32,000 bases of DNA from Candidatus Peribacter riflensis (GCA_001430755.1 CP013062.1:150001-182000); one strand, 5' to 3'; numbered from the stretch's first letter, positions 6,314 through 32,000 are shown. Numbers and translations: made by a program. The notes: generated by a model not told the origin, from the letters alone.

Positions 6314-8638
6314 GTGCGACGGGTGTTCCCCCTCTTTCTCCTCGGCCTGCTCGTCTCTGCGGCGTCTGCCCAGTCAGAGCCGTTTCTGGATACTGTCCAT
6401 CATCCGCAAGCCGGACCGATCGAGGAGTTGAGAACGCGCGGCATCGCGCAGGGGTACGGCAACGGCATCTTCCGTCCCGATACTCCTATCAACCGTGCCG
6501 AGTTTTTAAAACTTGTCACACTTGCGGTGTTCGGGCGGATGTATGTGACTGATACGACAGCGTGCTTCGCCGATTTCCAGGACGAGGTGCAGTGGTACTG
6601 GATGACTGCGTGCGTGGCGAAGGAGGCCGGTCTCATCGATGGGTATCCCGACGGCACCTTTCGCGGCGGGCAGACTGTGAATCTGGCCGAGGCGCTGAAG
6701 ATGGCCGAAATGGCCTGGCAGATGCCGCTGCCGCAGTACTTTCGCGAGCCTGATCACTGGTATGACCCGTTCTTCGATGCCGTCGCGGACCGCGGCATCG
6801 CGGAGTACTTTCTGCACACTCCCGGCCATCTGCTCACGCGGGGGGACGCCGCATGGCTTCTCGTCGCTCTCGGGCAGCCCCTTGCAACTGTCGAGCAGCG
6901 CGCTTCATCCCGCTCGTCGGCGTTCTCGACATCCTCGGTTTCTTCTCCCTCCATCCACGGTGTCTGCGGTAATGGTCGCAGAGAGGGCACGGAGCAGTGC
7001 GATGACGGCAACCGCGAAGATGGCGACGGCTGCAGCTCCATCTGCATCATCGTTCCTGAGACGATTCAGCATTCCGCGATTCGCCTGGACCAGCGCTCTC
7101 TGGGCGAAGACACGCGCGCCGGCGGCTCCAGCCAGACCGTGCTCTTCTCGTTCGACGCCAATGCGCGTTGGCAGGATGCCATCCTCACGGGTCTGAAGCT
7201 CGAAGCGGAACTGGGAGCGCTCAGCGCAGCCGTGAACTACCGACTCTATGAAGATGTTGACGGTGATGGGCGTCCGGAATCAATCGTGGGATCGGGGATT
7301 GTGCGGGAGGGCGTGCTCTCGTTCTCAGGGCTGGATGCGCGCATTTTCATCATTCGCGGAAAACGTTTCGAGATCCGCGCCGATCTGGTGCAGGCGGCGG
7401 GGAGTGTGGCGCTCGGTTTCCGCACGACGGATTCTGCGTACGTGGAGGCCGTGGGCGCGCTCGACGGGCGCGAGCTCATTGGCATCCGGACCGATGACGG
7501 CGGATGCCCCCGTACGGACAATTGCTGGATTGCGGTGTACACCAAGGAATCTGAGACCGTCACCGTCGCCGAGCGCGGCAATCTGTTCGTCCGTGAAGCC
7601 ACCGCGCCGACGCGCAGCCATCAGCTCCTTGCCGGAGGCAAGACCGGCGATCTGCTGCGCTTGAGTTTCCGTGCGACCGATGAGGAGATCACCGTCCGGC
7701 GCCTGGCGATTCGCGGGGCGACGGATGCTGTGGAGCAGATTGAATTCTACGATCCGGGCATTGCCACGCCGTTCGCCATCGCGCACACCTCCGGATGCCG
7801 GACCCCCGCGACCGGCCAGTTCTGCACCTCTGTGAATTTCTCGGTGCACAAAGACATTGTCCGCGATGTGATCGTGCGCGCGGTGCTCAAGCCTGCCGAT
7901 GACGGGGCAGTGAGCGGCGATGCCGTCACCCTCATGCTGACGCCCGGCACGTCCGTCTCTGATCCGGCCGTGGAAGCCACGGGCGTGGCCTCGCAGGAGG
8001 ACCTGGTGCAGAACGACGGGGATTTCAGCGCAGAGGGCGAGATCTTCATCGGACGGGCAGCCGCAGGGGGAAACAACGCCATCGAAAGTTCCACGCATGA
8101 TGTCGTGCACAGCGGCATCGCGAGCATCACCAATGCCGCGACTGAGTTCGACGGCGCGGTGGTGCCGACAGGGCTGCGCACGTTTGGCTCCTTCCGTTTC
8201 CGGGCGCACGAGAAGCCGGCCACCGCCCGCGGATCGCGCTCGGTCCATCTGACGGACCTCACCTTCGATGTGACGGCGACGAGCGTGCGCTTTCAGACCG
8301 GCAGTTTCGTCCTCATCAATACGATTGCGCCCACCATCGCTTCCACCTGCACCGAAACGGGCATCACCGGTGCCTTCACCGTGACGTGTTCTGCATTTGT
8401 GGCAGAGGGGGTGCATGCGATCATTCCCTTCGGAGACTACGTGACGCTGGGGTTGCGGGGCTACATCGAGAGTTCCAAGACCGTTCCATCCGGAACGAGC
8501 ATGCTGCAGGTGAGCCTGGTGAATTTCAATGACCGTAGTGCGGCGGGCAGCGTGGTGTGGAATGACGGCACCACCACGTTTGAGTGGGTGGATAGCGATG
8601 CATCCGATGTACGCTCCACGCTCTATCAAACACCGTAA
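6314..8638 (+). CDS. large secreted SLH-domain protein with a Myxococcus-type cysteine-rich repeat
   Basis: GTG start with signal peptide MRRVFPLFLLGLLVSAASAQ. N-terminal SLH-like repeats are present (GYGNGIFRPDTPINRAEFLKLV; GYPDGTFRGGQTVNLAEALKMA). It contains CGNGRREGTEQCDDGNREDGDGCSSIC. The long beta-rich C-terminal region belongs to no family I recognise. Confidence 0.9.
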   Translation: MRRVFPLFLLGLLVSAASAQSEPFLDTVHHPQAGPIEELRTRGIAQGYGNGIFRPDTPINRAEFLKLVTLAVFGRMYVTDTTACFADFQDEVQWYWMTACVAKEAGLIDGYPDGTFRGGQTVNLAEALKMAEMAWQMPLPQYFREPDHWYDPFFDAVADRGIAEYFLHTPGHLLTRGDAAWLLVALGQPLATVEQRASSRSSAFSTSSVSSPSIHGVCGNGRREGTEQCDDGNREDGDGCSSICIIVPETIQHSAIRLDQRSLGEDTRAGGSSQTVLFSFDANARWQDAILTGLKLEAELGALSAAVNYRLYEDVDGDGRPESIVGSGIVREGVLSFSGLDARIFIIRGKRFEIRADLVQAAGSVALGFRTTDSAYVEAVGALDGRELIGIRTDDGGCPRTDNCWIAVYTKESETVTVAERGNLFVREATAPTRSHQLLAGGKTGDLLRLSFRATDEEITVRRLAIRGATDAVEQIEFYDPGIATPFAIAHTSGCRTPATGQFCTSVNFSVHKDIVRDVIVRAVLKPADDGAVSGDAVTLMLTPGTSVSDPAVEATGVASQEDLVQNDGDFSAEGEIFIGRAAAGGNNAIESSTHDVVHSGIASITNAATEFDGAVVPTGLRTFGSFRFRAHEKPATARGSRSVHLTDLTFDVTATSVRFQTGSFVLINTIAPTIASTCTETGITGAFTVTCSAFVAEGVHAIIPFGDYVTLGLRGYIESSKTVPSGTSMLQVSLVNFNDRSAAGSVVWNDGTTTFEWVDSDASDVRSTLYQTP

Positions 8639-11017: not shown

Positions 11018-12397
11018 ATGAGCAGGCGCAATGATCATTGGTCTTTGGGATGCATTACGCTCCTCTGCGGGCTTCTCTTCCCTTTCACGTTCGCGCAGGC
11101 CGCGAGTGCTCCGCCATTCCCGGACATGGCGAACTCGTGGTACGGCTACCAGGAGAGCACTCAGTACCTCAAAGACAAAGGCTCCATCGGCGGGTACCCC
11201 GATGGGCTCTTTCACCCCCAAGACACGGTCAACCGTGCGGAATTCCTGAAGCTCGTCTTCCGTTCGAAGGGAGCCGCGGAACCGGTCACGGAAGATTGCT
11301 TTGCCGATGTTCCGTCCGATGCGTGGTTCGCGCCGTTCGTGTGCGCGGCCAAGCGGCGTGGAATTATCCAGGGCTACACTGTGGGCTCCCGCCAGGTCTT
11401 CAAGCCGGAGCAGCCGATTAATTTTGCCGAGGCCATCAAGATGGCGGTGCTTTCGTACGGCAGCGAAATTGCCGAAGGCAGCGGCGAAAAGTGGTATCAG
11501 CCGTACGTGGATGAGCTTGATGCGAAGAAGATCCTCGCAAGCTGGTCGTACATTCCGTGGGCTCCCATCACGCGCGAGCGCGCCGCCGACCTGATCGCGC
11601 GTTACGTGCGGCACGATGAAGATCGCGTGCTCCCCCATCTCTCTCCCGGATGCGGCAAATCCGAACGCAATCCTTCGCTTACGCTCACTGTCGGGGGGCA
11701 GGAGAGAACGTATCTGCTCACGCAACCCTCCCATGCCAGTACCTCTACCCCTTCGACGCTCATCGTCGCGTTTCACGGCCGCACCAACGGTAACGCGCAG
11801 GTGCGCGCTTACTTCGGCTTAGACCGCTCTGCATCCGATTCCTTCATCGCCTACCCGTCCGGTATTCCCAATGGCAACGGCAGTTACTCGTGGTCTGACC
11901 CCGGCGACAAGGCACAGGAACTGCGCGACTTCGCGTTGTTTGATGCCATCGTGCGCGAAATCGGCGACAGTGCGTGTATCGACTTAGACCGCATCTACGT
12001 CGTCGGGCATTCGTTGGGCGCGTGGTTTGCCAATTCCGTCGCGTGCGCGCGCGGGGGAGTGGTGCGCGCTTCGGCAACAGTGGGCGGGTCCACGACCATG
12101 AAGAATTGCACGGGTCCCACGGCCGCGCTGATCATCAATAATCCCAAAGATACGCTTTCGTCCCATGTGGCTGCGGAGGCCATGCGCGATATCCGCATCG
12201 CGGCGAATACGTGTTCGCCAAAGAGCGCAAAAACGGAGCCTTCATCCCTCTCGTGCATGCAGTACGCCGATTGTCCGCTCAATCCCGTGGTCTTCTGCCC
12301 GCATACGATCGACCGGGATCGCCATGGCACGTACTACCCGCACCTGTGGCCGGATGGTACCGCGCAGGCGATGGTGAAGTTTTTTGAGGGGTTGTAG
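11018..12397 (+). CDS. secreted SLH-domain protein fused to an alpha/beta-hydrolase (PHB-depolymerase/esterase-like) domain
   Basis: Signal peptide followed by SLH-like repeats (FPDM...GYPDGLFHPQDTVNRAEFLKLV; FADV...GYTVGSRQVFKPEQPINFAEAIKMA). The C-terminal half has LIVAFHGRTNG and the nucleophile elbow GHSLGAW. Confidence 0.88.
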   Translation: MSRRNDHWSLGCITLLCGLLFPFTFAQAASAPPFPDMANSWYGYQESTQYLKDKGSIGGYPDGLFHPQDTVNRAEFLKLVFRSKGAAEPVTEDCFADVPSDAWFAPFVCAAKRRGIIQGYTVGSRQVFKPEQPINFAEAIKMAVLSYGSEIAEGSGEKWYQPYVDELDAKKILASWSYIPWAPITRERAADLIARYVRHDEDRVLPHLSPGCGKSERNPSLTLTVGGQERTYLLTQPSHASTSTPSTLIVAFHGRTNGNAQVRAYFGLDRSASDSFIAYPSGIPNGNGSYSWSDPGDKAQELRDFALFDAIVREIGDSACIDLDRIYVVGHSLGAWFANSVACARGGVVRASATVGGSTTMKNCTGPTAALIINNPKDTLSSHVAAEAMRDIRIAANTCSPKSAKTEPSSLSCMQYADCPLNPVVFCPHTIDRDRHGTYYPHLWPDGTAQAMVKFFEGL

Positions 12398-12501
12398 TAG
12401 GATTGAATATCCTCTGTTGAATCGCACCGACGAAAAAGCATATTTTTAATTACTGTCTAGAAAGATAGACAAGGTAGTGACTTGGTTCGATTGTTTAGCA
12501 C

Positions 12502-12825
12502 ATGCAAACCACTCAGCAAGAGATCGAAAGAGTACTTGAGAAAGTACAGATTATGTCCCTTCCAGAGAATGAACATATTTTTGATTTACATGTTCATGAA
12601 GAGAATAACATTTGGTTTATTGGCGGATGCGTTGGACCGTATGCGCACACCCTCGCCGACGGACAACCATATCCAGTACTGTGTCCATTACCTGTGTCTG
12701 ATTTAGAATTTACATCGAAAGAGGAAGCACTTGAATTTGCACAAGAGGTACACGATGTTTTGTTCGAGAGGGGGCTGGAACCCGATGCATCTACCTTTCG
12801 CCTTCTTGAAAGACAGTCTGTCTGA
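12502..12825 (+). CDS. hypothetical protein (107 aa), island-encoded
   Basis: This is the only sizeable ORF in this stretch and I recognised no family. A nested hairpin ending in a T-run follows it. Confidence 0.5.
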   Translation: MQTTQQEIERVLEKVQIMSLPENEHIFDLHVHEENNIWFIGGCVGPYAHTLADGQPYPVLCPLPVSDLEFTSKEEALEFAQEVHDVLFERGLEPDASTFRLLERQSV

Positions 12826-12883
12826 AGAAGGTGAGACACAGTTGCGGCAGGAGTAACGGCCAGAGAGGACGTGCTTATTTACC

Positions 12884-12958
12884 GGAAGATGCTTCACGCT
12901 TACGTTTCCGATTTTCAGTGGAGATACAATAATCGGAAGGCTTCACAGCATCTTTTTT
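12884..12958 (+). terminator. nested stem structure ending in T6, a terminator-like element
   Basis: The outer stem pairs AAGATGCT (12886-12893) with AGCATCTT (12947-12954). The inner stem pairs TTCCGATT (12906-12913) with AATCGGAA (12931-12938). TTTT follows. Confidence 0.4.
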
Positions 12959-13020
12959 GATCTGCTCCCTTCACGCGTGTTGTCGCGGCAAGCTCTAGGA
13001 GCTTGAAAAACTGATTACGG

Positions 13021-13416
13021 TTAGTCTTCATGTTTTTCAGGAAGCAGTCCTACTGAATCTCCGCTAAACAGCCAATTTACTACTATATATGCTAGTCCAA
13101 GTACCTTTGCCAAATTTTCAGTAATTAAAAGACCAATAAGCCACTTGGCACCTTCATCTTGTGGCGCAAATACTCCAACTCCAATTAGGGGAATCATTAC
13201 CATGTCGTAAATCACGATAAGAACGATGCACAATAGAATCCAACCAGACCATTTCTTTCTCATTGCGATAATGTCTTGTTTTTCTTGTGCAAGAAGCATC
13301 GCAGTCATCCTTCTATCTTCCAATTGAGAAAAGAGGGTAACGGGTATGGTTGGTGTCATACTTCTTTTTGTACCCAAGAGTTTAAGCGCCTCATTTTTTG
13401 TTGGCAGTGAATTCAT
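13021..13416 (-). CDS. small membrane protein (131 aa, 2-3 predicted TM helices), translationally coupled to the ImmA-like gene
   Basis: Hydrophobic segments WILLCIVLIVIYDMVMIPLIGVGVF and WLIGLLI...LGLAYIVVNWLF. Its ATG at 13416 overlaps the upstream TGA (ATGA overlap). A GTG at 13422 is an alternative start. Confidence 0.7.
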   Translation of the reverse strand: MNSLPTKNEALKLLGTKRSMTPTIPVTLFSQLEDRRMTAMLLAQEKQDIIAMRKKWSGWILLCIVLIVIYDMVMIPLIGVGVFAPQDEGAKWLIGLLITENLAKVLGLAYIVVNWLFSGDSVGLLPEKHED

Positions 13417-13940
13417 ATCCACTTCAGTCTAAATTTGATAACATCAGTGGATACGCCAAATATACCAGCTAAGAGTTCTTGATCTGCGTCGGTCTTATTA
13501 AGACTATATTGCTTCATGATTTTTTTGAGCATATCTAGTGGAACCAATAGACTCGCAGCAAAACAATTCGCCTCCTTCTCTATTGGATTATCTTCTTTTG
13601 GACGTGGATACCTTGGTAAAACTCCATACTCATTTGGTTTATGTCCTAGAATAAAATGACCAAGTTCATGAGCAATAGTAAAAGTTTGTCTATTTGGTGG
13701 GTCTGCACGATTCACAAAAATGATCTTTTGTTCTGGATCAAAGAAGCCAGCAACATCTCTCAATGTTTCTGGAAACTGAAGTACTTTCACAGTTAGGCCA
13801 TGTTTTTCTGCAAGACGGGTAATTGGAATTATTGGTTCCTCAATTTCATACTGCCGCAAAATTTCAGCAGCCTTATCTTTCGCCATATCGTATCGAGGTG
13901 AAAGAATAGCTGTCATATGCGCAAAGAATCTCACATTCAT
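13413..13940 (-). CDS. ImmA/IrrE-family (COG2856) zinc metallopeptidase
   Basis: The HEXXH motif HELGH lies at 13656-13670 in the context FTIAHELGHFILGH. The family-typical EKEANCFAASLLVP lies downstream. Alternative ATG starts are at 13916 and 13886, and the track start at 13961 is TTG. Confidence 0.88.
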   Translation of the reverse strand: MNVRFFAHMTAILSPRYDMAKDKAAEILRQYEIEEPIIPITRLAEKHGLTVKVLQFPETLRDVAGFFDPEQKIIFVNRADPPNRQTFTIAHELGHFILGHKPNEYGVLPRYPRPKEDNPIEKEANCFAASLLVPLDMLKKIMKQYSLNKTDADQELLAGIFGVSTDVIKFRLKWI

Positions 13941-14120
13941 ACAACTAGCACAAACTGACAATCATCTTATTTAGTATGAAAAGTATTGTTTTAGGTGCCA
14001 GTAATGAGTTTATGCAACTGTTGATCCTAGTCATAAAGGGGTAGTTACCTATTTACTTGGGTCCCAGACAGGGTTTTTTGAAGGTTGGGTTTTAGGAATG
14101 GGAGGGCAAGACGGTCGGGA

Positions 14121-15785
14121 TCAAGCAAAACAACCCTTTAGATATTCAATAAAATTAATCGCCTTTAGAAGTATCCGCTCAAACCCTATTTGGTATCCAA
14201 CTTTGTCGATGCCGAATTTCTTTAACAAAGCATCATATTCTTTGCCCTTTTTATGTGCCGCCCCTTTTGATCTTAGCTTCTGCAAATCACGTAGGAAGGA
14301 AATATGCAATTCGGCATCAGCACAGCTTTTTTCAGACATAAAACGAGAAAGCCATGTGATGCTTCCTTGTTTTTCTTTATTAATGTATTGCCGAGAACAG
14401 TGCTTGATCAATTCTTCTATATTGATTGATTCGATCAGGACGTGAGCCAATGACAAAATTTGATTATCAAATTCTGCCTGCGTATTTCGCAGAGGAATGT
14501 GCAGCGAATTTAGATGATGCGCATCCTTCTTCGGTAACTCTCCGAATAATTCCCAGCTGTTCTTCTCCTCCCAATCCTTTCTAAAAATTGAAAACCTATG
14601 TCTGAAAAGGAGGTCCGCTTTTTCTGGCTCTGAAAACTGCGCATAAAAATCTCTTTTCAACGATGTCTTGCTGATTGCTTCACCTGGAACGACATTGTGC
14701 GCAAGCCAATGAGCATGATCTTCAAAAGGAAGATCACGTCCCAGATCACCTAAATAAGCAGAAACATAATTTTTGAGATTGTTATCAATGTACATGCTCC
14801 ACATATGACCACAGGTGAGATGTCCATCGTGAACGGTGTATTTCGGGTCATTATAATACTTTTCCAACACTTCTCGCTTGAAGAACACCCGCGTGAGATA
14901 TTGGGGAGCATCAGGATTGGCACCGAAAAAATTTCCAAGCATATGGTGATTGCATGTGTATGACACAGGATCACCGTTTTCGTCTGTTTTAATTACATAC
15001 TTGGGATATTCTCGCTCCTCTTCCTCATCCTGTTTATAAGGCCAAATTCCGCTTTTCTCTTTGGGTAAACCAGTAAGAATTACTTTTCCGATCATTCTTG
15101 AAAAACTTGCTCGTGTATCCCCTCCGAATTTGTCCCGCCACGTCATACAAGTAAATGAAAACCGAGCACTGTCATTCGTATGTTCAAAGGCGATACGATC
15201 TTCATCGATGCCTAATTCTTCCAGGGTCTTATATGACCATCTGCAAAAAGTAAAACATAGGCACAAAGCCATGTCCTTGATCCCGAGAAATTGCCTAACT
15301 TGTTTCAGATGAGCACCAATGTAATCACCATTCATCTTTACTACATCTTCCAAATCTCCATTGTCTAAGACTTTTTGAAACGTGTTTTTTTGTTCATCAA
15401 AAAATAGATTGTGGTAGAGACGAAACTCCTCATTTAGTTCTTTGTATCCGTCTTTTACACCACCAAAGTCCCTTTCGATAATTAGTGGTTCATAATCATA
15501 AAAACTGCCGAAACGCTTGTACTCGATGGTTCCCCTTTTTCCTTTGGTAAACCCAACACAGCCTGGTTGACCATCTATCGAACAATCATGCCAATCCGAA
15601 CGCTTAAGTTCTTCGGGAATTCGTGAAGTAGGAATCATGCAGCAGTGAAACAAAAGATCATCAACTAGCTGCCTACTCTCCCGTCTTTCTCTTGAGTCAT
15701 GCAAGGTAAGCCATTGCTCTGTGCGCATTTTATTCAATACATACTCACGAAGATCCTCTTGGAGTAACCATGACTTGTCGCTCAT
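14121..15785 (-). CDS. large uncharacterised protein (554 aa) with a C-terminal HEPN-like Rx5H motif
   Basis: Long, clean AT-rich ORF. The C-terminal helical region contains LQKLRSKGAAHKKG, with the R and H codons at 14271-14273 and 14253-14255. His/Cys clusters occur at CNHHMLGNF and VHDGHLTCGHMW. I recognised no family for the first roughly 450 aa. Confidence 0.85.
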   Translation of the reverse strand: MSDKSWLLQEDLREYVLNKMRTEQWLTLHDSRERRESRQLVDDLLFHCCMIPTSRIPEELKRSDWHDCSIDGQPGCVGFTKGKRGTIEYKRFGSFYDYEPLIIERDFGGVKDGYKELNEEFRLYHNLFFDEQKNTFQKVLDNGDLEDVVKMNGDYIGAHLKQVRQFLGIKDMALCLCFTFCRWSYKTLEELGIDEDRIAFEHTNDSARFSFTCMTWRDKFGGDTRASFSRMIGKVILTGLPKEKSGIWPYKQDEEEEREYPKYVIKTDENGDPVSYTCNHHMLGNFFGANPDAPQYLTRVFFKREVLEKYYNDPKYTVHDGHLTCGHMWSMYIDNNLKNYVSAYLGDLGRDLPFEDHAHWLAHNVVPGEAISKTSLKRDFYAQFSEPEKADLLFRHRFSIFRKDWEEKNSWELFGELPKKDAHHLNSLHIPLRNTQAEFDNQILSLAHVLIESINIEELIKHCSRQYINKEKQGSITWLSRFMSEKSCADAELHISFLRDLQKLRSKGAAHKKGKEYDALLKKFGIDKVGYQIGFERILLKAINFIEYLKGCFA

Positions 15786-15791
15786 GTGTCA

Positions 15792-15818
15792 ATTATAGGG
15801 CACATGGGTCACATGCCC
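15792..15818 (-). promoter_or_regulatory. TATAAT box 6 nt upstream of the ATG, plus an adjacent imperfect palindrome (possible operator)
   Basis: The minus strand reads GGGCATGTGACCCATGTGCCC-TATAAT-tgacac-ATG. In the 21-nt palindrome, 7 of 10 positions are Watson-Crick pairs and 1 is a wobble pair. Confidence 0.4.
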
Positions 15819-15822
15819 ATAG

Positions 15823-15839
15823 TGGCTGGGGAGGAGGGA
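15823..15839 (-). repeat. 17-nt perfect copy of the tRNA-Gln 3' end (att-like remnant)
   Basis: TGGCTGGGGAGGAGGGA is identical to 17385-17401. That stretch covers the CCA, the discriminator, the 3' acceptor strand and the 3' T-stem strand of tRNA-Gln. Confidence 0.85.
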
Positions 15840-15868
15840 AAAGCAGACCGTTCCGCATGTTTCGTTCT

Positions 15869-17296
15869 TCAGCTCCCGTACCGGCTGCGGAGCAGAACAT
15901 CCTGCCAGTTCATTTCGTAGAATTCCTTGGTCGCCGAAGTCTCCCGCGCTTTGTTCAGCCACTCCTGCCATCGTTCATCGGCTTGCGGCTGCGTGCTTTC
16001 TTCGAGGACAAGGCCGTACACATCACCCGAGAGCATTTTCAGCTCCAGCATGTCGATGCGCGAAGTCGGCAGCGCGGCCAGTCGCCGGTTCAGCCGGAAG
16101 ATCGCCTGCTCCACGGGGAACACGGTCGCCACGGCGTACATCCAGACAAACGCGACCACGATGAACTTCACCATGTCGGGTTTGCCCTTCTGAAAGAGCG
16201 CCGCAATCAACCGGACAAAGAGGAGGATCGAAAACAGCACGGTGTAGAGCGCGAAGAACTTTTCGTAGCTGAAGCCGTAGGTGTACACGTACATGCCCAT
16301 GCGGTTGGCTGCCGAGAACAGGAGCAGGAGCGACGCGACCATGAATACCATGAGGATGTGCTGCACGGGCCGGGCCGTCCGGCGGTAGTAAATGAGAAAG
16401 AGCAACGCGTTGATGCCGCTCAAGAAGAAGAGCTCCCAGAAGCCGTTTTTCACCAGCCGTTCCGTTTCGAGGAACTCCGTCGGAAGCGTCGGCACCCACA
16501 GGGAGGAGAGTTGCGTGAGGAGGAAGAGGATGTAGAGACCGAGCACGCCCCCCAGGACGATGCCGGAAATAACGCTGTCCATGGGCTTCATTTGCGTCGA
16601 TGCGAACGTTTCCTCCCGTGTCCAGCGGACGATGCCGGCGAGCAAGAGGAGCGTAAGCAGGACAAAAACGCCGAAGCGCACCAGTGTTTCCACAGAAATG
16701 ATTTTCAGCAACGGTTCGTAGACCTGCCGGACCAGTTCGGCAAAGCGCGCATCAGCGTCGGAGAGGAGCGGGATGAAGATGAGGCAGGCCACAACAGCAA
16801 AAATCACCACACCGATTGCGATGCGCTTGTGCAGGTCGGACCGCTTGTTGCCGGAGGGCAGAACGCTCCCGATGGTCAGTGACACGGCTGTTGCCAGCGC
16901 GCTCACGATCCCGACGAAACGTTCAACGATCCTCAGGAGCCAGCTGATATTCCACACGACGCTTTGGGAGTTGCGCGTCGAAGACACGATCCATGCGGCT
17001 GCGAAAAGCGTCGGCACGACCAGGCAGTTCACCAGTTTGATGTACGGGTTTTCGTACAGGGCATAGCTGACCGCAATCAATCCCAGCGGTATGAGAAAGA
17101 GCAGGTCCGCCCGTTGCCACGTTCGTTTTTCGGACGCGAAGGCATAGATCGCCATGGCGCCCACAATGAACACGGATATATTCCAGCCGAATGCCGAGAC
17201 GTCTTTCTCCCAGACATTCCACGCGGTCAGCACCCAGAAGAGGGAGAGCGCCAGCGCACCGTAGACGGTCATTCTTTTCCGCCAAGAAGCATCCAT
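15869..17296 (-). CDS. polytopic membrane protein (475 aa; DUF4153/DUF4173-like is my guess)
   Basis: Many hydrophobic helices. The ORF track extends it to 17644, but that extension reads through tRNA-Gln. The first ATG downstream of the tRNA is at 17296 (MDASWRKRMTVYG...). Confidence 0.8.
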   Translation of the reverse strand: MDASWRKRMTVYGALALSLFWVLTAWNVWEKDVSAFGWNISVFIVGAMAIYAFASEKRTWQRADLLFLIPLGLIAVSYALYENPYIKLVNCLVVPTLFAAAWIVSSTRNSQSVVWNISWLLRIVERFVGIVSALATAVSLTIGSVLPSGNKRSDLHKRIAIGVVIFAVVACLIFIPLLSDADARFAELVRQVYEPLLKIISVETLVRFGVFVLLTLLLLAGIVRWTREETFASTQMKPMDSVISGIVLGGVLGLYILFLLTQLSSLWVPTLPTEFLETERLVKNGFWELFFLSGINALLFLIYYRRTARPVQHILMVFMVASLLLLFSAANRMGMYVYTYGFSYEKFFALYTVLFSILLFVRLIAALFQKGKPDMVKFIVVAFVWMYAVATVFPVEQAIFRLNRRLAALPTSRIDMLELKMLSGDVYGLVLEESTQPQADERWQEWLNKARETSATKEFYEMNWQDVLLRSRYGS

Positions 17297-17384: not shown

Positions 17385-17459
17385 TGGCTGGGGAGGAGGG
17401 ATTCGAACCCCCGAATGCCTGCTCCAGAGGCAGGTGCCTTACCACTTGGCGACTCCCCA
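17385..17459 (-). tRNA. tRNA-Gln (anticodon CTG), CCA encoded
   Basis: The minus strand reads TGGGGAG-TC-GCCAAGTGGTAAGGC-A-CCTGC-CTCTGGA-GCAGG-CATTC-GGGGG-TTCGAAT-CCCTC-CTCCCCA-G-CCA. This is the same architecture as E. coli tRNA-Gln, including the U1-A72 pair. Confidence 0.93.
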
Positions 17460-20529: not shown

Positions 20530-22506
20530 ATGAATCACCGCATGCGAACGATAGCGCTTCTCAGCGTGCTCGTTGGTTGTACTGCTCTGTTCGGAATGTT
20601 CCGGGCTACCGATAGTCAACGTTTGCGATCGCAAATGGTGGAGCCTGGTTCAGGTCCTCAACTCCCCCCCGTTTCTCTGCCACCGTGCGACGATTCCGAT
20701 GGAGAGAATTTCTATAACCCCGGGTTCGTCTCTGGGACGCAGATCTCTCAATGGGATGCGCAGCAGTTCAGGAGCGTACCGGTGTCAGTCGTGCGCGACT
20801 ACTGCGAAGGCAGCATTCTCAAAGAAGCTCGCTGTGCAGAAACATGCAGAGAAGGTGCAACGGTCATGTGCAATTACTTCACCACCTTCGATTGTCCCAA
20901 TGGTTGTGAGAATGGCGCATGCAAGCGCGATTCCGCATCCTCTTCCTCGTCGTCCGCTTTGGCCCGATGCGGGAACAGGATCCGCGAATCCGGTGAGGAT
21001 TGTGACGATGGTAATACCCAAAATGGGGATTACTGCACGTCGCAGTGTAAACTCTGCCCCGCCTTTTCTGCTCCATACTGTCCCGATGGAACGCTCGTCG
21101 GCGGGACGGAGCTGGATGAGCGTGGCTGCCGTACGTCAGTGATCTGTGTGCGATCCTCCTCTTCTATGGCCTCTGAGACCTGCGCGAAGGACGGCCAGAG
21201 AGTCTACGGCTCCACACAGTTCGGTCCCACGATGTGCTGCAGCAAGAACGCAGGGATCATGCCGAATGCGTATCTTGCAGGTGATCAGTGCGTCGCCACG
21301 AGCGATGGCTCCAAAGGCACCTGCATCGACGGCTGGTGGAAGTCTTGCGGCGATGGTACGTGCGGAGAAAAGGAAAACAAATGCAGCTGCCCGCGGGATT
21401 GTTCCGTCTGCATCAAGGAAGGTGAAAAAAGTGCCTCCACCCCATTCGATCCTCCTTGTTGTTACGGTTTGACCAGCGTGAATCCGGGCAATGCCCCCCA
21501 GGCGGACGGCTCTTGCCCGACGGAGCTCCCTGTCGGTGCCAAGCTGTGCACAAATTGTGGCAATGGTACGTGTGAGCCGTGGGAGAACAAGTGTTCCTGC
21601 CCGCGGGATTGCACTGCGACCACCTGTGGAAATAAGCGTATCGATACGGACGAAGAGTGTGATCCCTCTGCAGAGAGCTATGCCCCGCAGTGCGGACCGA
21701 ATGGCCAATGCAACAAAGACTGCAAGTGCCTCTATTTCTTCCCGCAGCCTCCCCCCCCGCCTCCGGTTACGACGGAATGCGGCAATGGTGTTCTTGATAC
21801 CGTTGAGCAGTGTGATCCATCCGCTCCGGATGGGACTGTAGCCTGCAAGAGTGATCAAAAATGCGGCAGGAGCTGCAAGTGCGTTTCCTTTTCCACTTCC
21901 TCAGCAGGACAGAGTTTCAGCACTCCACCGGCCGGATTCGAGGATGAGGTACAGACCAATCCCGTCGAGACCCGGCACAACTGGTTTTCTGATGTCAGTC
22001 TCGAAGATGAGGTGGGTCAAGCCGCCAATTTCCTTGCCGACAAGGGCGTTATCGGCGGCTACCAGGATGGGACGTTCCGGCCGGAGAAGACCGTCAATCG
22101 CGCCGAGGCCGCCAAGTTCCTTCTCCTTGCGCGGTACGGGTCCGTCACTTCCCAGGAAGGCGTCTCGCCGTTCCGCGATGCGGTTGCCGGACAGTGGTAT
22201 GTGCCCTTCATCATCCGGGCGGCTGAAACTGGCATCATCGGCGGTTATGCGGACGGGACCTTCCGTCCGGCGAATATGGTGAACACGGCAGAATTCCTCA
22301 AGATGCTTTCGATCACTTTTAAGCTTTCTCAAAACGAGCAGCACAATTTCAGTGATGTCTCTGCAGAGGACTGGTTCGCACCGTATGTCGGTTCCGCGTT
22401 TGTCTACAAACTCTTCCCCGACAGGGGGCTTTCGCTCGAGCCGCAGCGTCTTCTCACACGGGGTGAGGTGGCCATTGCCATCGCGAGGATCCTGCAGACA
22501 CGATGA
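20530..22506 (+). CDS. secreted Cys-rich repeat protein with three C-terminal SLH domains
   Basis: A signal or anchor segment is followed by CGNRIRESGEDCDDGNTQNGDYCTSQC. The motifs CGDGTCGEKENKCSCPRDC and CGNGTCEPWENKCSCPRDC are duplicated, and further ECD-type repeats and a poly-Pro stretch are present. Three SLH repeats close the protein (GGYQDGTFRPEKTVNRAEAAKFL; GGYADGTFRPANMVNTAEFLKML; LLTRGEVAIAIARIL). Confidence 0.9.
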   Translation: MNHRMRTIALLSVLVGCTALFGMFRATDSQRLRSQMVEPGSGPQLPPVSLPPCDDSDGENFYNPGFVSGTQISQWDAQQFRSVPVSVVRDYCEGSILKEARCAETCREGATVMCNYFTTFDCPNGCENGACKRDSASSSSSSALARCGNRIRESGEDCDDGNTQNGDYCTSQCKLCPAFSAPYCPDGTLVGGTELDERGCRTSVICVRSSSSMASETCAKDGQRVYGSTQFGPTMCCSKNAGIMPNAYLAGDQCVATSDGSKGTCIDGWWKSCGDGTCGEKENKCSCPRDCSVCIKEGEKSASTPFDPPCCYGLTSVNPGNAPQADGSCPTELPVGAKLCTNCGNGTCEPWENKCSCPRDCTATTCGNKRIDTDEECDPSAESYAPQCGPNGQCNKDCKCLYFFPQPPPPPPVTTECGNGVLDTVEQCDPSAPDGTVACKSDQKCGRSCKCVSFSTSSAGQSFSTPPAGFEDEVQTNPVETRHNWFSDVSLEDEVGQAANFLADKGVIGGYQDGTFRPEKTVNRAEAAKFLLLARYGSVTSQEGVSPFRDAVAGQWYVPFIIRAAETGIIGGYADGTFRPANMVNTAEFLKMLSITFKLSQNEQHNFSDVSAEDWFAPYVGSAFVYKLFPDRGLSLEPQRLLTRGEVAIAIARILQTR

Positions 22507-25479: not shown

Positions 25480-25781
25480 ATGGTCCGAAAATCACCAAAA
25501 ACCGTCGGCGTTACCAATGCTGTTCTCCTGCAGCACTTGCAGGGAATGCGGTACGCTCTGGAAACTCGCCTGGACAGTCTGGAGAAGCGCATGGGTGGAG
25601 TGGAGAAACACTTGGGTGGGCTGGATAGTCGCATGGGCGGGCTGGAGAGTCGCATGACGGCCGGATTCACGGAGGTCCACGGGCATCTCGGCAAAATCGA
25701 CGCGGCACTCCAGCGTCTCTACGTCCATCGCACGAGCATGCTGGGGCGCATTGAGAAACTTGAGGAAACCGTGGGCGTCGC

Positions 25782-25785
<4 letters not shown>
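25480..25785 (+). CDS. small coiled-coil protein with tandem heptad repeats (101 aa)
   Basis: LEKRMGG-VEKHLGG-LDSRMGG-LESRMTA heptads. Its 3' end overlaps the convergent MFS gene by 4 nt. I recognised no family. Confidence 0.5.
25579..25662 (+). repeat. four tandem imperfect 21-bp repeats (heptad-encoding)
   Basis: ctggagaagcgcatgggtgga / gtggagaaacacttgggtggg / ctggatagtcgcatgggcggg / ctggagagtcgcatgacggcc. Confidence 0.8.
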
Positions 25786-28456
<2,671 letters not shown>

Positions 28457-28901
28457 GAATTAGGAATTATGAATTATGAACGAAGCACCCATGCCTATTG
28501 CATCTCCCAGCACCGCGTCGGAAAAAATCAGAGTCTTCACGGATCTGTTTTCCTGGCAGGATGCCCATAAACTTGTTCTCATGATTTACAGAATCACAAG
28601 GAAGTTCCCAAAAGATGAAATGTTCGGATTGGTTGCCCAATTGCGCCGGGCGGTCGTTTCTATCTCATCCAATATCGCTGAGGGATTCAGCAGGATCTCC
28701 TACGCGGAGAAAATTCATTTTTATTCGATCGCTCTCGGATCCGTGACGGAAGTGCAGAATCAGATGCTCATCGCGCGGGATGTCGAGTATGTTGCCCAAG
28801 AAGATTTCATGTCTGTGGAGAAGCAGAGTGTCAAAGTACATAAGCTCATCAACGGCCTGATCAAATCCAGTCGATCATTCTTAATTCCTCATTCCTAATT
28901 C
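28457..28901 (+). mobile_element. IVS-like cassette: four-helix-bundle gene bounded by 24-bp imperfect inverted repeats, inserted between atpD and atpC
   Basis: Left arm GAATTAGGAATTATGAATTATGAA (28457-28480). The reverse complement of the right arm (28878-28901) is GAATTAGGAATGAGGAATTAAGAA, giving 21/24 identity. The arms start 1 nt after the atpD stop and enclose the ORF's start and stop codons. The segment is AT-rich relative to the operon. Confidence 0.5.
28476..28898 (+). CDS. four-helix-bundle protein of the 23S rRNA intervening-sequence protein family
   Basis: FSWQDAHKLVLMIYRITRKFPKDEMFGLVAQLRRAVVSISSNIAEGFSR...ALGSVTEVQNQMLIA matches the family pattern (W-Q-A, FPK.E..GL..Q.RRA..SI..NIAEG). 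Confidence 0.92.
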   Translation: MNEAPMPIASPSTASEKIRVFTDLFSWQDAHKLVLMIYRITRKFPKDEMFGLVAQLRRAVVSISSNIAEGFSRISYAEKIHFYSIALGSVTEVQNQMLIARDVEYVAQEDFMSVEKQSVKVHKLINGLIKSSRSFLIPHS

Positions 28902-28914
28902 ATAATTCTCCAAC

Positions 28915-29355
28915 ATGCTTCGTCTAGAAATCACCACGCCCGACCGTCCCATGTTCGAAGGGGAGGTGGACTCTGTGTCCCTTCCGACTCCGCAGGGGGA
29001 AATTACGATTTTGCCGCACCACATCCCGCTCATCTCCATCGTGTCGCCGGGGGCGATCACGATCCGGCAGAAGGGGAGTGAGCAGCTGCTCGCGGTTTCA
29101 CGCGGGGTCATCGAGGTGGATGGCAAGACCATCCGCGTGATGGTGGATACGGCGGATCGCGCCGATGAGTTGCAGGAGGAGGCGATTTTGAAGGCCAAAG
29201 CCGAAGCGGAGAAGCTCCAGCGCGAGAAGCGCGAAGACCGCGAGGGCTTTGCCGAGGCCACGGCCATCCTCGAGCGCGAGTTGGCGCGCCTGCACGTGGT
29301 GCGTCGCCGGCGCGGCGGGCGACGGTCCGTCCCCACCCCCGGCAGTGGTGAATGA
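28915..29355 (+). CDS. atpC: F-type ATP synthase subunit epsilon
   Basis: MLRLEITTPDRPMFEGEVDSVSLPTPQGEITILPHHIPLIS is typical of AtpC. It has a helical C-terminal domain and an unusual Arg/Gly-rich tail. Confidence 0.92.
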   Translation: MLRLEITTPDRPMFEGEVDSVSLPTPQGEITILPHHIPLISIVSPGAITIRQKGSEQLLAVSRGVIEVDGKTIRVMVDTADRADELQEEAILKAKAEAEKLQREKREDREGFAEATAILERELARLHVVRRRRGGRRSVPTPGSGE

Positions 29356-29383
29356 CGCGCCGCGTTCGGATGGATCCAAGGGG

Positions 29384-29590
29384 ATGGGTCTCATGTTGAG
29401 CCTCCGGCTCGCGTGGAACCTGGGGTTCATCATCGCGGTTCCCGTTGCTGTGTTCGGTTTCGGAGGCGCCTACTTAGATAAGTACCTTCAGACCACCCCG
29501 ATTTTCGTGATCACGGGTTTTGTGCTGGCGATCGTACTGACGGTGATAGGGGTCTATCGCAAAGTGAAGGAGATTTTGGGAGCTTCTTAG
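29384..29590 (+). CDS. AtpZ/AtpI-like small membrane protein (68 aa)
   Basis: Two TM helices (LAWNLGFIIAVPVAVFGFGGAYLD and IFVITGFVLAIVLTVIGVY). Its position immediately before atpB matches this family. AAGGGG lies upstream of the ATG. Confidence 0.7.
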   Translation: MGLMLSLRLAWNLGFIIAVPVAVFGFGGAYLDKYLQTTPIFVITGFVLAIVLTVIGVYRKVKEILGAS

Positions 29591-29662
29591 CTGATTAGCT
29601 TCTTAGTTTTTCTGATGATGATTTCCTTAAAACATTCCTAAGAAGCTACAACCTAAGAAGCT
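29581..29662. repeat. double palindrome: 2x AGCTTCTTAG and 2x CTAAGAAGCT
   Basis: AGCTTCTTAG occurs at 29581-29590 and 29597-29606. Its exact complement CTAAGAAGCT occurs at 29638-29647 and 29653-29662. This predicts two stacked 10-bp helices around an AT-rich 31-nt loop. Confidence 0.85.
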
Positions 29663-29720
29663 GCGTCTGGTCGAGAATTCATTTGCTCTCACATCCCTTC
29701 GTTCTTTATCCTCCTCCCCG

Positions 29721-30533
29721 ATGTCCGGCATTGAAGCTCCGCCACTGGCCTCCGAAACAATCGCACACATCGGCTCTTTCGAAGTCCGTAACACGCTCAT
29801 CATGGCGTGGCTCGCCATGGCGGTGGTGTTCATCGTGGTCTTCTTCGCCCGCCGGACCAAGTTCAAGCAAATCCCCGGGCGCTTTCAGGCACTGCTGGAG
29901 CTCATCGTGGAGGGGCTGTTCAACTTCTTCAATTCCATCATCGGCGATACGAAGCAGACCAGGCGGTTCTTTCCGCTCATTGCCACGATCTTCCTCTTCC
30001 TCATGCTGGCCAACTGGATGGGCATCTTGCCGGGCGTGGGGAGCATCACGATTCTAGGTGAGCACGACGGGCACATGCTCAATTTGCCGATTTTCCGCTC
30101 CATGAATGCGGATGTGAACATGACCCTCGCCGTCGCGCTGATCTCGGTCATCGCCACGCAACTCTTTGGCATCGCGGCCCTCGGCGTGATGCCGTACGCC
30201 AACAAATTTTTCGTGGCGCCCTGGCGCGATCCGATCGGGTCCTTCGTGGGGATTCTGGAGCTGATCGCAGAGATGGCGAAGATCATTTCGTTTACCTTCC
30301 GTCTCTTCGGCAACATCTTCGCGGGCGAGGTGCTGCTCGTGGTCATCGGCTTCCTCATGCCATACGTCGCTCCCATTCCGTTTCTGGGGCTCGAGCTCTT
30401 CGTGGGCTTCGTCCAGGCGCTGGTCTTCTCCATGCTCACCGCTGTCTTCCTCAAGATGGCCGTGACGGCGCATGGCGGGCATGAAGAGCACGGCCATGAA
30501 GGGGGGCATGCGGTGGAAATGGCGCACGCGTGA
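29721..30533 (+). CDS. atpB: F-type ATP synthase subunit a
   Basis: LANWMGILPG and the essential-Arg region FRLFGNIFAGEVLL are present. It has an unusual His-rich C-terminal tail, AHGGHEEHGHEGGHAVEMAHA. Confidence 0.93.
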   Translation: MSGIEAPPLASETIAHIGSFEVRNTLIMAWLAMAVVFIVVFFARRTKFKQIPGRFQALLELIVEGLFNFFNSIIGDTKQTRRFFPLIATIFLFLMLANWMGILPGVGSITILGEHDGHMLNLPIFRSMNADVNMTLAVALISVIATQLFGIAALGVMPYANKFFVAPWRDPIGSFVGILELIAEMAKIISFTFRLFGNIFAGEVLLVVIGFLMPYVAPIPFLGLELFVGFVQALVFSMLTAVFLKMAVTAHGGHEEHGHEGGHAVEMAHA

Positions 30534-30606
30534 ACGCGCATGAGGCGATGGGACATGGAGCCCGGTGGTTTTGAGGATGTGCGGTAATTCTGCTATCGTT
30601 TTCAAT

Positions 30607-30972
30607 ATGAACAGCGCCATCAAAATACTCTCGAGTGCAGTGGGATTATCGCTGCTCTGGCTCGTCATGGGAATCGTATTTGTTCCTCTGGATGCAGTTG
30701 ATCAGTTCAGCAATTACTTCGTGTTTGCTCTGCTCCACGCACTATTGTTCTTCCTTCCTTTGTCCATTGCACTGTTCTCTACACGCATGCGCTGGAGGAT
30801 CTTCTCGGCAGCCATTCTCGTTCTCTATTTCATGATTGTTGCATTTTCCCTTCAGTTTCTCTTTTCTTCCTCGCTACACAAGCCCGTAGTATCGGATCTG
30901 TTCACGCTTCTCTACATGGCACCGGGGATGTTTCCGTTTGCGCTCCTCACGGCCTTGGGAGGATCGATGTGA
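30607..30972 (+). CDS. hypothetical 4-TM membrane protein (121 aa) inserted between atpB and atpE
   Basis: Hydrophobic ORF with lower GC than its neighbours by eye. TATCGT lies 7 nt upstream of the ATG at 30607. The track start at 30565 is a possible alternative. Confidence 0.55.
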   Translation: MNSAIKILSSAVGLSLLWLVMGIVFVPLDAVDQFSNYFVFALLHALLFFLPLSIALFSTRMRWRIFSAAILVLYFMIVAFSLQFLFSSSLHKPVVSDLFTLLYMAPGMFPFALLTALGGSM

Positions 30973-31133
30973 CGCCATCATGGCCACGTGAAGAGATCTG
31001 AAGATATTGAGTAAGCAATACAAATAATAACAGTCAAATATTGGCGGAGTCGGCTCTTAGACCCTTGATTGTCTCTTGCCCCGTCCCTACAATCCGCGGC
31101 GTTTTCTCATCTCCACTTCTTTCCCACTTTTTT

Positions 31134-31391
31134 ATGCCAGAAGTCGCAGAAGTCGCCCAGACCGCCGTGTCTTCGATCGACAAGAACCTGCTGGTGGCCA
31201 TCACCATGGGATTCGGTGCGCTCGTCCCTGCCTTCTCCATCGGTTGGATGGGGAGCAAGGCCATGGAGGCCATCGGCCGCAATCCCGAGGCCGCGAACCG
31301 CATCCAGACGCCGATGGTTCTCGCCGTCGCGTTCACGGAAGCCATCGCGATCTACTCGCTCGTCGTGGCCCTCATTATCAAGTTCGTCTGA
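31134..31391 (+). CDS. atpE: F-type ATP synthase subunit c
   Basis: 85-aa hairpin protein with the loop sequence GRNPEA and the ion-binding carboxylate context AFTEAIAIYSLVVALI. Confidence 0.92.
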   Translation: MPEVAEVAQTAVSSIDKNLLVAITMGFGALVPAFSIGWMGSKAMEAIGRNPEAANRIQTPMVLAVAFTEAIAIYSLVVALIIKFV

Positions 31392-31480
31392 TTTCCAGTG
31401 TTCAGCGTTGAGCGATCAGTGAACAGCATAAGCAGCTGATCGCCTGCCGTTGACCATCGATTCTTCTCCTCCCGCGTTCC

Positions 31481-31987
31481 ATGGAATTGCTCTTAAAACT
31501 CGGCATTAACTGGCAGCTGCTCATCGCGCAGATCGTGAACTTTGCGATCGTGATGGGAGTGCTGGGGTTCTTCCTCTACCGTCCCATCCTGAATTTGCTC
31601 GATGCCCGCGCAGAGCGCATCCGCAAGGCCATGGAAGATGCCAAGCGCGTCGAGAACCAGATGCAGGAGCTGCACAAGCTCCGCGAGGAAGAGATGAAGC
31701 GTCTCGATAAAGAGAGCGGCGAGTATTTCGACCGCATGCGCAAAGAGGCCCAGGCCCTGCACGAAGAGATGATGGCCACTGCCAAGAAAGAGGCGGAAAC
31801 AACGCTCCAGAACGCGCTCAAGCGCATCGATGAGGAGCGCCGGGTCATGATGGAGGATGTCATGAAGACCGTGAATACCGTGATCGTACGCATGACGGAG
31901 AAGCTCCTCGAGCGGGAGTTCACCCCCGCCGACCAGAAGCGTATTCAGGAGAACCTCGTTGCAGAACTTCCCCAGTCGATGCGATGA
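31481..31987 (+). CDS. atpF: F-type ATP synthase subunit b
   Basis: An N-terminal TM helix (LLIAQIVNFAIVMGVLGFFLY) followed by a long charged helix. It sits immediately after atpE. Confidence 0.9.
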   Translation: MELLLKLGINWQLLIAQIVNFAIVMGVLGFFLYRPILNLLDARAERIRKAMEDAKRVENQMQELHKLREEEMKRLDKESGEYFDRMRKEAQALHEEMMATAKKEAETTLQNALKRIDEERRVMMEDVMKTVNTVIVRMTEKLLEREFTPADQKRIQENLVAELPQSMR

Positions 31988-32000
31988 AGGTGTCTGCCGC
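31984..32000 (+). CDS. atpH: 5' end of the next atp gene (probably subunit delta), truncated by the window edge
   Basis: An ATG at 31984 overlaps the atpF TGA (ATGA coupling). Only 17 nt are visible, so the identity rests on position alone. Confidence 0.3.

Follow-up and report, generated by a model that had tools for sequence, protein, structure and literature searches.

Our analysis concerns a small gene cassette lodged in the F-type ATP synthase operon of Candidatus Peribacter riflensis, a host that belongs to the Peregrinibacteria within the candidate phyla radiation (CPR). All positions refer to the window—the whole stretch of DNA analysed, 32,000 nt in length (GCA_001430755.1 CP013062.1:150001-182000)—and labels of the form Lnnn denote the related loci with which it was compared. 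Between atpD and atpC lies a gene for a four-helix-bundle protein of the S23p (23S_rRNA_IVP) family, and each end of the cassette is a tandem array of 7-nt units, the two arrays being mutually inverted. The feature is real, and it precisely fills the intercistronic spacer, as laid out below.

27092..28456, plus strand: atpD (F1 beta subunit), the upstream host gene; Pfam ATP-synt_ab, E 1e-72, and a gene of 454 aa called on the public contig of identical sequence
28450..28483, plus strand: left arm, tandem heptamers GAAGTAA GAATTAG GAATTAT GAATTAT GAACGA; inverted repeat and Tandem Repeats Finder (TRF)
28476..28898, plus strand: four-helix-bundle (S23p / 23S_rRNA_IVP) gene; PF05635, TIGR02436, AlphaFold2 and Foldseek
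28875..28908, plus strand: right arm, complementary heptamers TCATTC TTAATTC CTCATTC CTAATTC ATAATTC; inverted repeat, TRF and RNA folds
28915..29355, plus strand: atpC (F1 epsilon subunit), the downstream host gene; Pfam ATP-synt_DE_N, E 6e-25

The segment first proposed (28457-28901) indeed abuts the atpD stop codon (TAA, 28454-28456) and ends 13 nt before the atpC ATG at 28915, the right array itself ending only 6 nt from the atpC start; the atpD stop sits within the first, degenerate heptamer (GAAGTAA) of the left arm. Its AT-richness is likewise borne out, with a GC content of 45.4% against 61.0% in atpD and 64.9% in atpC. The predicted terminal inverted repeat—a 24-nt left arm set against the reverse complement of 28878-28901—was recovered with three mismatches, and none of 100 dinucleotide shuffles gave any match. 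The full arms are longer than the 24 bp originally noted, extending over 34 nt (28450-28483 against 28875-28908) at 82% complementarity. Moreover, they are heptamer arrays and not plain inverted repeats, a point that the original prediction had missed: TRF resolves each arm into 4.6 tandem copies of a 7-nt unit, GAATTAN on the left and its complement on the right, and this pattern never arose in shuffled sequence. Since the arms are tandem 7-nt arrays, they are complementary in several registers. No further copy of the element ends was found elsewhere in the 32-kb window, leaving one copy only.

The arms also overlap the coding sequence. An AGGA motif and an ATG (28476) lie in the left arm, whereas the right arm holds the stop codon of the open reading frame (ORF; TAA, 28896-28898), its repeats encoding the C-terminal tail SFLIPHS. 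The proposal that the repeats enclose both ends of a 140-aa ORF therefore stands for the stop and for the ATG at 28476, which do fall within the arms, while the choice of start is ambiguous: a second ATG (28491), giving 135 aa beginning MPIAS, is the start used in the public annotation and in the orthologues. At the RNA level, a terminal stem with the ORF in its loop, as had been suggested, is present in both the minimum-free-energy and the centroid folds, with a mean probability of 0.68 that a left-arm base pairs with the right arm. Stem stability, named beforehand as a point on which the idea could fail, came out in its favour: the modelled arm duplex has an energy of -22.9 kcal/mol (z = -3), so that the stem is predicted to be thermodynamically favoured.

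The family assignment proved sound, the protein matching PF05635 at 122.9 bits (cutoff 33.8, E 8e-36) and TIGR02436 at 120 bits (cutoff 24, E 5e-35); over 135 aa it is identical to a public "four helix bundle protein" of Candidatus Peribacter riflensis. An AlphaFold2 model (pLDDT 88) places four helices at residues 13-41, 50-72, 76-102 and 108-136, in agreement with a predicted up-down four-helix-bundle fold. Foldseek aligned this model to Xanthomonas XCC0516 (2gsc) with a root-mean-square deviation (rmsd) of 1.0 at 46% identity, and to Bacteroides BT_0352 (2rld) with an rmsd of 1.9; both entries contain five chains each, and the Xanthomonas protein is cited as a homopentameric toroid (PMC4990558). 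No family among the PADLOC models matched in a search for a defence role. A kinship of the S23p family with HEPN proteins could not be confirmed.

To place the Peribacter cassette in a broader frame, we examined a family sample of 79 related loci from many CPR lineages, drawn from a scan of species-representative genomes, 76 of which had usable flanks. Almost everywhere the CPR flanks follow a common build, (GAATNAN)n, ATG...ORF...stop, (NTNATTC)n, with a median of about four units per arm. Across the 76 loci the tandem-repeat score at period 7 reached 11.7 on the left and 12.9 on the right, against about 3.5 at periods 5, 6, 8 and 9. The stop codon falls within the right array in 54 of 64 loci, and an in-frame ATG within the left array in 42 of 64. 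The arms are also matched to one another within a locus: their complementarity averages 18.0 against 7.3 in shuffled sequence, and drops to 13.2 when the left arm of one locus is paired with the right arm of another (Mann-Whitney p = 1e-13 for cross-locus against own-locus pairs). The same concordance is seen in the core of the unit, with GAAT on both sides in 57 loci, GTAT on both sides in eight and a mixed pair in one. The GTAT variant, found in nine loci scattered over the protein tree (both arms are GTAT in seven or eight of them, by counting rule, only the left arm exceeding threshold in L040 and L043), points to several switches between the two cores. Heptamer arrays as such are roughly 10-fold enriched beside family genes, which account for 115 of 200 arrays in about 12% of the sequence.

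The layout extends beyond the CPR, with other units. In the cyanobacteria, arms of (CAGGAGT)n / (ACTCCTG)n flank the gene on Nostoc punctiforme pNPUN01 and (GGGTGTA)n / (TACACCC)n that of Calothrix, and in Riemerella the arms are (AAGGTTY)n / (RAACCTT)n. The Riemerella anatipestifer cassette (L169, NZ_CP081930.1) is flanked by sufB and an accessory gene of Fe-S assembly, and lepA is close by; the record is labelled a plasmid, and these surrounding housekeeping genes suggest that it represents chromosomal sequence. Twelve viral contigs carry four-helix-bundle genes only about 40% identical, with units such as TAGTCYG, TAGGCYR, GGTACGY, GAGGCKT and GGAGTCN. The bracketed layout was present in three of four plasmid loci (cyanobacteria, Bacteroidota) and in all viral-contig loci, and the inverted-repeat score exceeded all 100 shuffles in 13 of 14 plasmid and viral-contig loci, most arms being visibly heptamer arrays; the single exception abuts an insertion sequence (IS) element. 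Heptamer bracketing is thus the norm of the family among the members examined, with a constant period of 7, a lineage-specific unit and co-varying arms. A general rule that period 7 serves to place stops in all three frames was dropped, since it is obeyed by no more than 19 of 64 arrays on the left and 36 of 64 on the right. In the literature we found no account of family-wide bracketing by heptamer arrays beyond the Coxiella description discussed below, nor of such cassettes in operon spacers—absences that are no proof of novelty.

The history of the atpD-atpC site was followed in relatives of graded distance. The gene is absent from all 80 loci retrieved by atpC relatedness, and the closest relatives show a patchwork of states (identities are those of atpD plus atpC to the window):

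L003, 94%: cassette present
L164, 92%: ORF-less hairpin of 9-nt units
L086, 91%: simple palindrome of 58 nt
L087, 88%: empty spacer of 20 nt
L088, 80%: decayed remnant with both arrays
L004 (likewise L005 and L006), 79%: cassette present
L089, 79%: empty spacer of 23 nt, sister of L088
L098, 76%: solo TTCTTAA array, three copies

The orthologues at this site share 80% (L003) and 74% (L004-6) amino acid identity with the window protein, and the cassette proteins of the atpD-atpC spacer are mutual best matches among 5.8 billion sequences. Their arms differ in number and sequence of units (GAATTAA/G in seven copies in L003, GAATCAG in L004) and keep the match between left and right. The spacer comparison could have turned up the gene in every relative with no repeats around it; instead, the orthologue arms are self-complementary and other close relatives lack the gene. 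The idea that the element had landed in the operon recently has to be given up, for the insertion is old and has been passed on vertically: dN/dS is 0.105 against the L003 orthologue, a sign of purifying selection, and dS is saturated against L004, so that the protein has been functional throughout. These comparisons show vertical inheritance of the cassette, with loss or decay in several sister lineages, and the most economical reading would be one old insertion in the ancestor of the Peribacteria clade followed by at least four losses.

Nor is the locus a lone oddity within an essential operon, as it might at first have seemed; operon spacers are the usual home of the cassette among its CPR, plasmid and viral-contig relatives. 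In 63 of 72 loci the genes on either side run in the same direction as the cassette gene, and the next ORF begins a median of 26 nt past the cassette-gene stop, which identifies the cassettes as tight intra-operon inserts; the neighbouring genes belong to about 100 different Pfam families. The order atpD, cassette, atpC is found in the window clade, L021 and L026, and atpA, cassette, atpG in L035 and L036. At both positions, beta|epsilon and alpha|gamma, the stoichiometry of the subunits drops from 3 to 1; the recurrence is suggestive, although sampling and orthology may inflate it. None of five conserved 16S/23S motifs occurred in 165 loci (including all 79 cassette loci), which is a weak negative. 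A second four-helix-bundle cassette lies within 3 kb in four loci.

Arrays also occur without the gene. Short-looped, ORF-less hairpins built from cassette units were found at L010 3611-3681, L024 2392-2465, L054 2437-2529 and L061 6195-6260, and L004 has a GAATCAN / NTGATTC hairpin (2438-2525) about 80 nt upstream of atpD; as both this hairpin and the L004 cassette use GAATCAN, the unit variant may be genome-specific. In many CPR lineages the atpD-atpC spacer itself holds ORF-less inverted tandem-repeat hairpins with unrelated, lineage-specific units: 9-mers of the form GAnTCCGAR in L164 (2354-2500) and L097 (380-511), TTAAACNG-like units in L140, L146 and L152, and further examples in L104, L107, L108, L114, L125, L131, L143, L144 and L165. 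In the same spacer of a distant CPR member, a gene for a cyclophilin-type peptidyl-prolyl isomerase (L147 594-1377; PF00160, E 1e-51) is preceded by a GAATTCA/GAATTAT heptamer array, a hint that such arrays can also be followed by cargo of another kind than the four-helix-bundle gene. Separately, the Peribacteria relative L092 carries a 194-aa ORF with no Pfam match (1908-2492) in place of the four-helix-bundle gene in the atpD-atpC spacer. L031 has three direct, not inverted, GAAATCC arrays (1771-1801, 2290-2320 and 3872-3888) within 2 kb of a GAAT-type cassette; more than one heptamer family can therefore occur in a single CPR genome.

The closest known kind of element is the IVS (intervening sequence) of rRNA that bears an S23p gene. 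Such IVSs and their ORFs came to light in the early 1990s and still have no accepted function or origin; S23p-bearing 23S IVSs have also been reported from Leptospira, Brucella and Xanthomonas-type hosts. In the Coxiella burnetii IVS, RNase III cuts in the middle of a 28-bp terminal stem, and an AG-rich ribosome-binding motif and three tandem GACAGAT heptamers plus one degenerate copy, varying in number by strain, precede the S23p ATG (Warrier et al. 2016, PMC4990558). The likeness of this helix-45 IVS to the Peribacter cassette is detailed: a loop that encodes an S23p-family protein, complementary ends some 28-34 nt long, tandem heptamers of variable copy number just 5' of the ORF, a purine-rich, ribosome-binding-like motif in the arm, and passive carriage within a host transcript. 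The IVS-like architecture of the original prediction is thereby upheld as homologous to that of a genuine rRNA IVS, with heptamers and an S23p ORF inside a stem that RNase III cuts; and since the Coxiella stem has heptamer repeats, the rRNA IVS would seem to be a particular case of a more general cassette. The differences are equally clear. The Peribacter host transcript is the protein-coding atpD|atpC spacer and not helix 25 or 45 of 23S rRNA, and an Rfam scan of the window returned two tRNAs only and no rRNA; the Coxiella ORF is decaying and apparently untranslated, whereas the Peribacter protein is under purifying selection; and RNase III cleavage, demonstrated in Coxiella, is here argued from likeness. 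The element, though it does not lie inside 23S rRNA, is best filed as an IVS-type cassette resident in a protein-coding operon.

Two other groups of repeats invite comparison. Heptamer arrays known as STRR (short tandemly repeated repetitive) sequences occur in cyanobacteria. Intergenic TAACTGA direct repeats have been described in Beggiatoaceae and cyanobacteria (MacGregor 2015, PMC4679880). Both resemble the cassette arms in having tandem 7-nt units, in two to six copies, that end just 5' of start codons and are lineage-specific in sequence, but they have been described as direct arrays, unlinked to a bracketed gene or to the S23p family. Heptamer arrays do flank the cyanobacterial four-helix-bundle genes examined, and we infer a connection of the TAACTGA/STRR repeats with heptamer-bracketed cassettes, which is not a published finding. 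Repetitive extragenic palindromic (REP) sequences, their paired form REPIN and the associated transposase gene RAYT similarly place one gene between inverted copies of a short repeat, with ORF-less inverted doublets scattered intergenically and often within operons. Here, however, the protein has no Y1 transposase domain and no known catalytic motif, and the arms are tandem 7-nt arrays instead of a single palindromic REP unit. A REP/REPIN-RAYT identity was consequently rejected for want of a transposase domain, the layout of bracketed gene and ORF-less doublets being all that is shared.

The reading that we place first, at roughly even odds (about 0.5), is that the cassette is co-transcribed with its operon, that its arms pair and that processing by RNase III uncouples atpD from the downstream cistrons. 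The cassette, apparently lacking a promoter of its own, would be transcribed as part of the atp operon; a sequence scan of the element found no promoter-like or terminator-like site at either arm. An intrinsic terminator was rejected as an identity for the arms, which are AT-rich without a T-run, and that scan reports nothing terminator-like there. In the transcript, the arms would pair into an imperfect stem of about 34 bp, which RNase III would cleave by analogy with the rRNA IVSs of Coxiella, Leptospira and Salmonella. Cutting there would part the atpD message from that of atpC and the cistrons beyond it, with a stub of the stem remaining on the 3' end of atpD and the four-helix-bundle message set free—or silenced—and the tandem 7-nt build would permit several pairing registers and tolerate the gain or loss of units. 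On the same analogy, RNase III processing of the atp transcript is plausible.

Several observations weigh against this account. The cleavage step at the Peribacter locus comes by analogy only, and the complete 481-nt fold is no stabler than shuffled sequence (z = 0.73), only the terminal stem standing out. Mismatches between the arms of 76 gene-bearing cassettes show no wobble excess (38 G·U against 46 A·C), and the ORF-less hairpins behave alike (30 G·U against 22 A·C in 26 hairpins, p = 0.33); with no G·U excess over A·C, selection specific to an RNA helix is not detectable, and these negative counts lead us to claim no covariation support for the helix. The stem model alone does not explain a period of 7 across phyla either, as a plain stem needs no tandem periodicity. 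Finally, cleavage in Coxiella removes the ribosome-binding site and the protein is seemingly not made, whereas the Peribacter protein is clearly under selection. Concerted evolution of the arms by DNA-level slippage and quasi-palindrome template switching, both established mutational mechanisms, would also fit. The conservation of period 7 across phyla and GC contents still calls for a reason, and a periodic reader in the shape of a pentameric toroid would be an attractive candidate.

The alternatives to co-transcription with RNase III processing—recognition of the arrays by the protein, selfish propagation and a hairpin useful to the host—overlap in part. The first, which we consider rather improbable though the likeliest of the three, takes the arrays as binding sites of the encoded toroidal pentamer on RNA or DNA, about five 7-nt units being read one per subunit. 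Binding could resemble that of TRAP to its triplets or that of iteron-binding proteins, and might autoregulate translation or control the formation and processing of the stem, with ORF-less arrays elsewhere as further targets. Such a reader would account for a fixed period with freely varying unit sequence across CPR, cyanobacteria, Bacteroidota and viral contigs, and for the four to five units per arm. The solved relatives are pentamers or toroids, and Avd, the nearest characterised structural relative, is a pentamer within an RNA-protein complex. ORF-less hairpins in the same genome share the unit variant of the cassette (for example L004 2438-2525, GAATCAN), and both the AGGA motif and the ATG fall within the left array. 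Co-evolution of protein and unit, however, did not emerge despite the several core switches: after correction for 114 tests (best p = 0.0025), no alignment column tells the 58 proteins of GAAT type apart from the nine of GTAT type. A binder of single-stranded RNA would moreover read one arm only, yet both are conserved, and that the number of units agrees with the number of subunits is, at present, numerology.

Less probable again is a selfish cassette of the kind of a REPIN or a miniature inverted-repeat transposable element (MITE), whose inverted arrays would be the ends by which it is copied to new intergenic sites, either through an unknown enzyme acting in trans or through template switching. 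The ORF-less hairpins would then be internally deleted derivatives, and quasi-palindrome correction and slippage at the DNA level, not function, would keep the arms alike—a process with which the symmetric mismatch spectrum agrees. The breadth of neighbouring gene families, the nearby second copies in four loci, the plasmid and viral-contig occurrences and the alternative cargo of L147 all fit such mobility, as do paralogues that are mutually closest within one genome (76% for L030/L041 and 90% for L040/L043), a GC content 15 points under that of the host genes, and, in the atpD-atpC spacer, the polymorphism for presence or absence, the intermediate stages of decay and the solo array. Against this, there is no transposase, no recognisable target-site duplication (none was evident on reading the cassette flanks) and no pair of near-identical copies; in the Peribacteria the cassette has kept to a single site for long enough that dS is saturated, its protein under strong purifying selection, and it is single in 32 kb of the Peribacter genome. 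A classical IS or MITE was rejected as an identity, the four-helix-bundle gene being the only ORF and same-genome paralogues elsewhere merely 76-90% identical.

We regard as still more doubtful an intercistronic hairpin of benefit to the host, a stabiliser or attenuator of the mRNA after atpD that would set the 3:1 ratio of beta to epsilon and carry the gene as incidental cargo. The idea draws on the ORF-less hairpins with unrelated units in the atpD-atpC spacers of many CPR lineages and on cassettes placed exactly at the beta|epsilon (window clade, L021, L026) and alpha|gamma (L035, L036) junctions, an enrichment that may partly reflect orthology and locus sampling. It is hard to reconcile with close relatives that fare well with empty spacers of 20-23 nt (L087, L089) and with cassettes in many unrelated operons, and it leaves the purifying selection on the protein unexplained. 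Lastly, an accessory (Avd) gene of a diversity-generating retroelement, or a remnant of one, is for practical purposes refuted: the fold is common to both (4dwl and 8ub7, the Avd of Bordetella phage BPP-1; target-normalised TM-scores 0.8-0.88), and relatives form pentameric barrels contacting RNA, but the match to model NF033474 is weak (E 2e-3; 18 bits against a cutoff of 80), sequence identity is about 5%, and the surroundings consist of atp genes, with neither a reverse transcriptase nor a template/variable repeat pair close by.

Whichever account holds, the Peribacter locus and its 90-odd relatives indicate that a four-helix-bundle gene inside inverted heptamer arrays is a build not tied to rRNA; it is widespread in CPR operon spacers, occurs in other phyla and on viral contigs, and can persist for long with its protein under selection. 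The purpose of IVSs becomes testable in this light, through binding of pentamers to heptamers and through RNase III cuts in operon transcripts, and annotation and expression models of streamlined CPR genomes are affected by cassettes and hairpins at junctions where stoichiometry changes. A much bolder generalisation, which we offer as speculation that will quite probably fail, is that all PF05635 genes—the rRNA IVS ORFs and those of cyanobacteria, Bacteroidota and CPR—form one heptamer-bracketed class, in which a toroidal pentamer would recognise its own transcript or DNA, as well as ORF-less derivative hairpins, through about five tandem 7-nt units (one to a subunit) and so control RNase III processing, translation or propagation of the cassette. 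If true, a protein family orphaned for 30 years would gain a function, rRNA IVSs would become a special case of an operon-dwelling element, and STRR-like intergenic heptamer arrays in cyanobacteria and other bacteria might be explained.

The host operon has features of its own. Its order is atpD, the cassette, atpC, ATPase_gene1, atpB, a membrane ORF, atpE, atpF, atpH, atpA and atpG, an unusual order that has atpD-atpC in the lead (window 27092-32000, and L001). The membrane ORF between atpB and atpE (30565-30972; 121-135 aa) is unannotated and has no Pfam match. N-ATPase operons are without atpH (the OSCP subunit), and as atpH is present here, the host ATP synthase is not of the N-type by that standard.

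Elsewhere in the window, an AT-rich island at 12400-16000 (GC 0.38-0.44 against about 0.60) was possibly acquired horizontally; its ORFs comprise one of 554 aa with no Pfam match (14121-15785, minus strand), an IrrE/M78 peptidase-like gene (13413-13961, minus strand) and a 133-aa orphan. A tRNA-Gln lies at 17385-17459. Four large S-layer homology (SLH) proteins are encoded within 22 kb (1368-2729, 6314-8638, 11018-12397 and 20530-22506), two of them with weak DUF4215 matches. Finally, a 21-nt tandem repeat of 3.7 copies (25579-25656) within a 101-aa ORF (25480-25785) encodes a reiterated, coiled-coil-like RMGG(L/V)E(S/K) heptapeptide.

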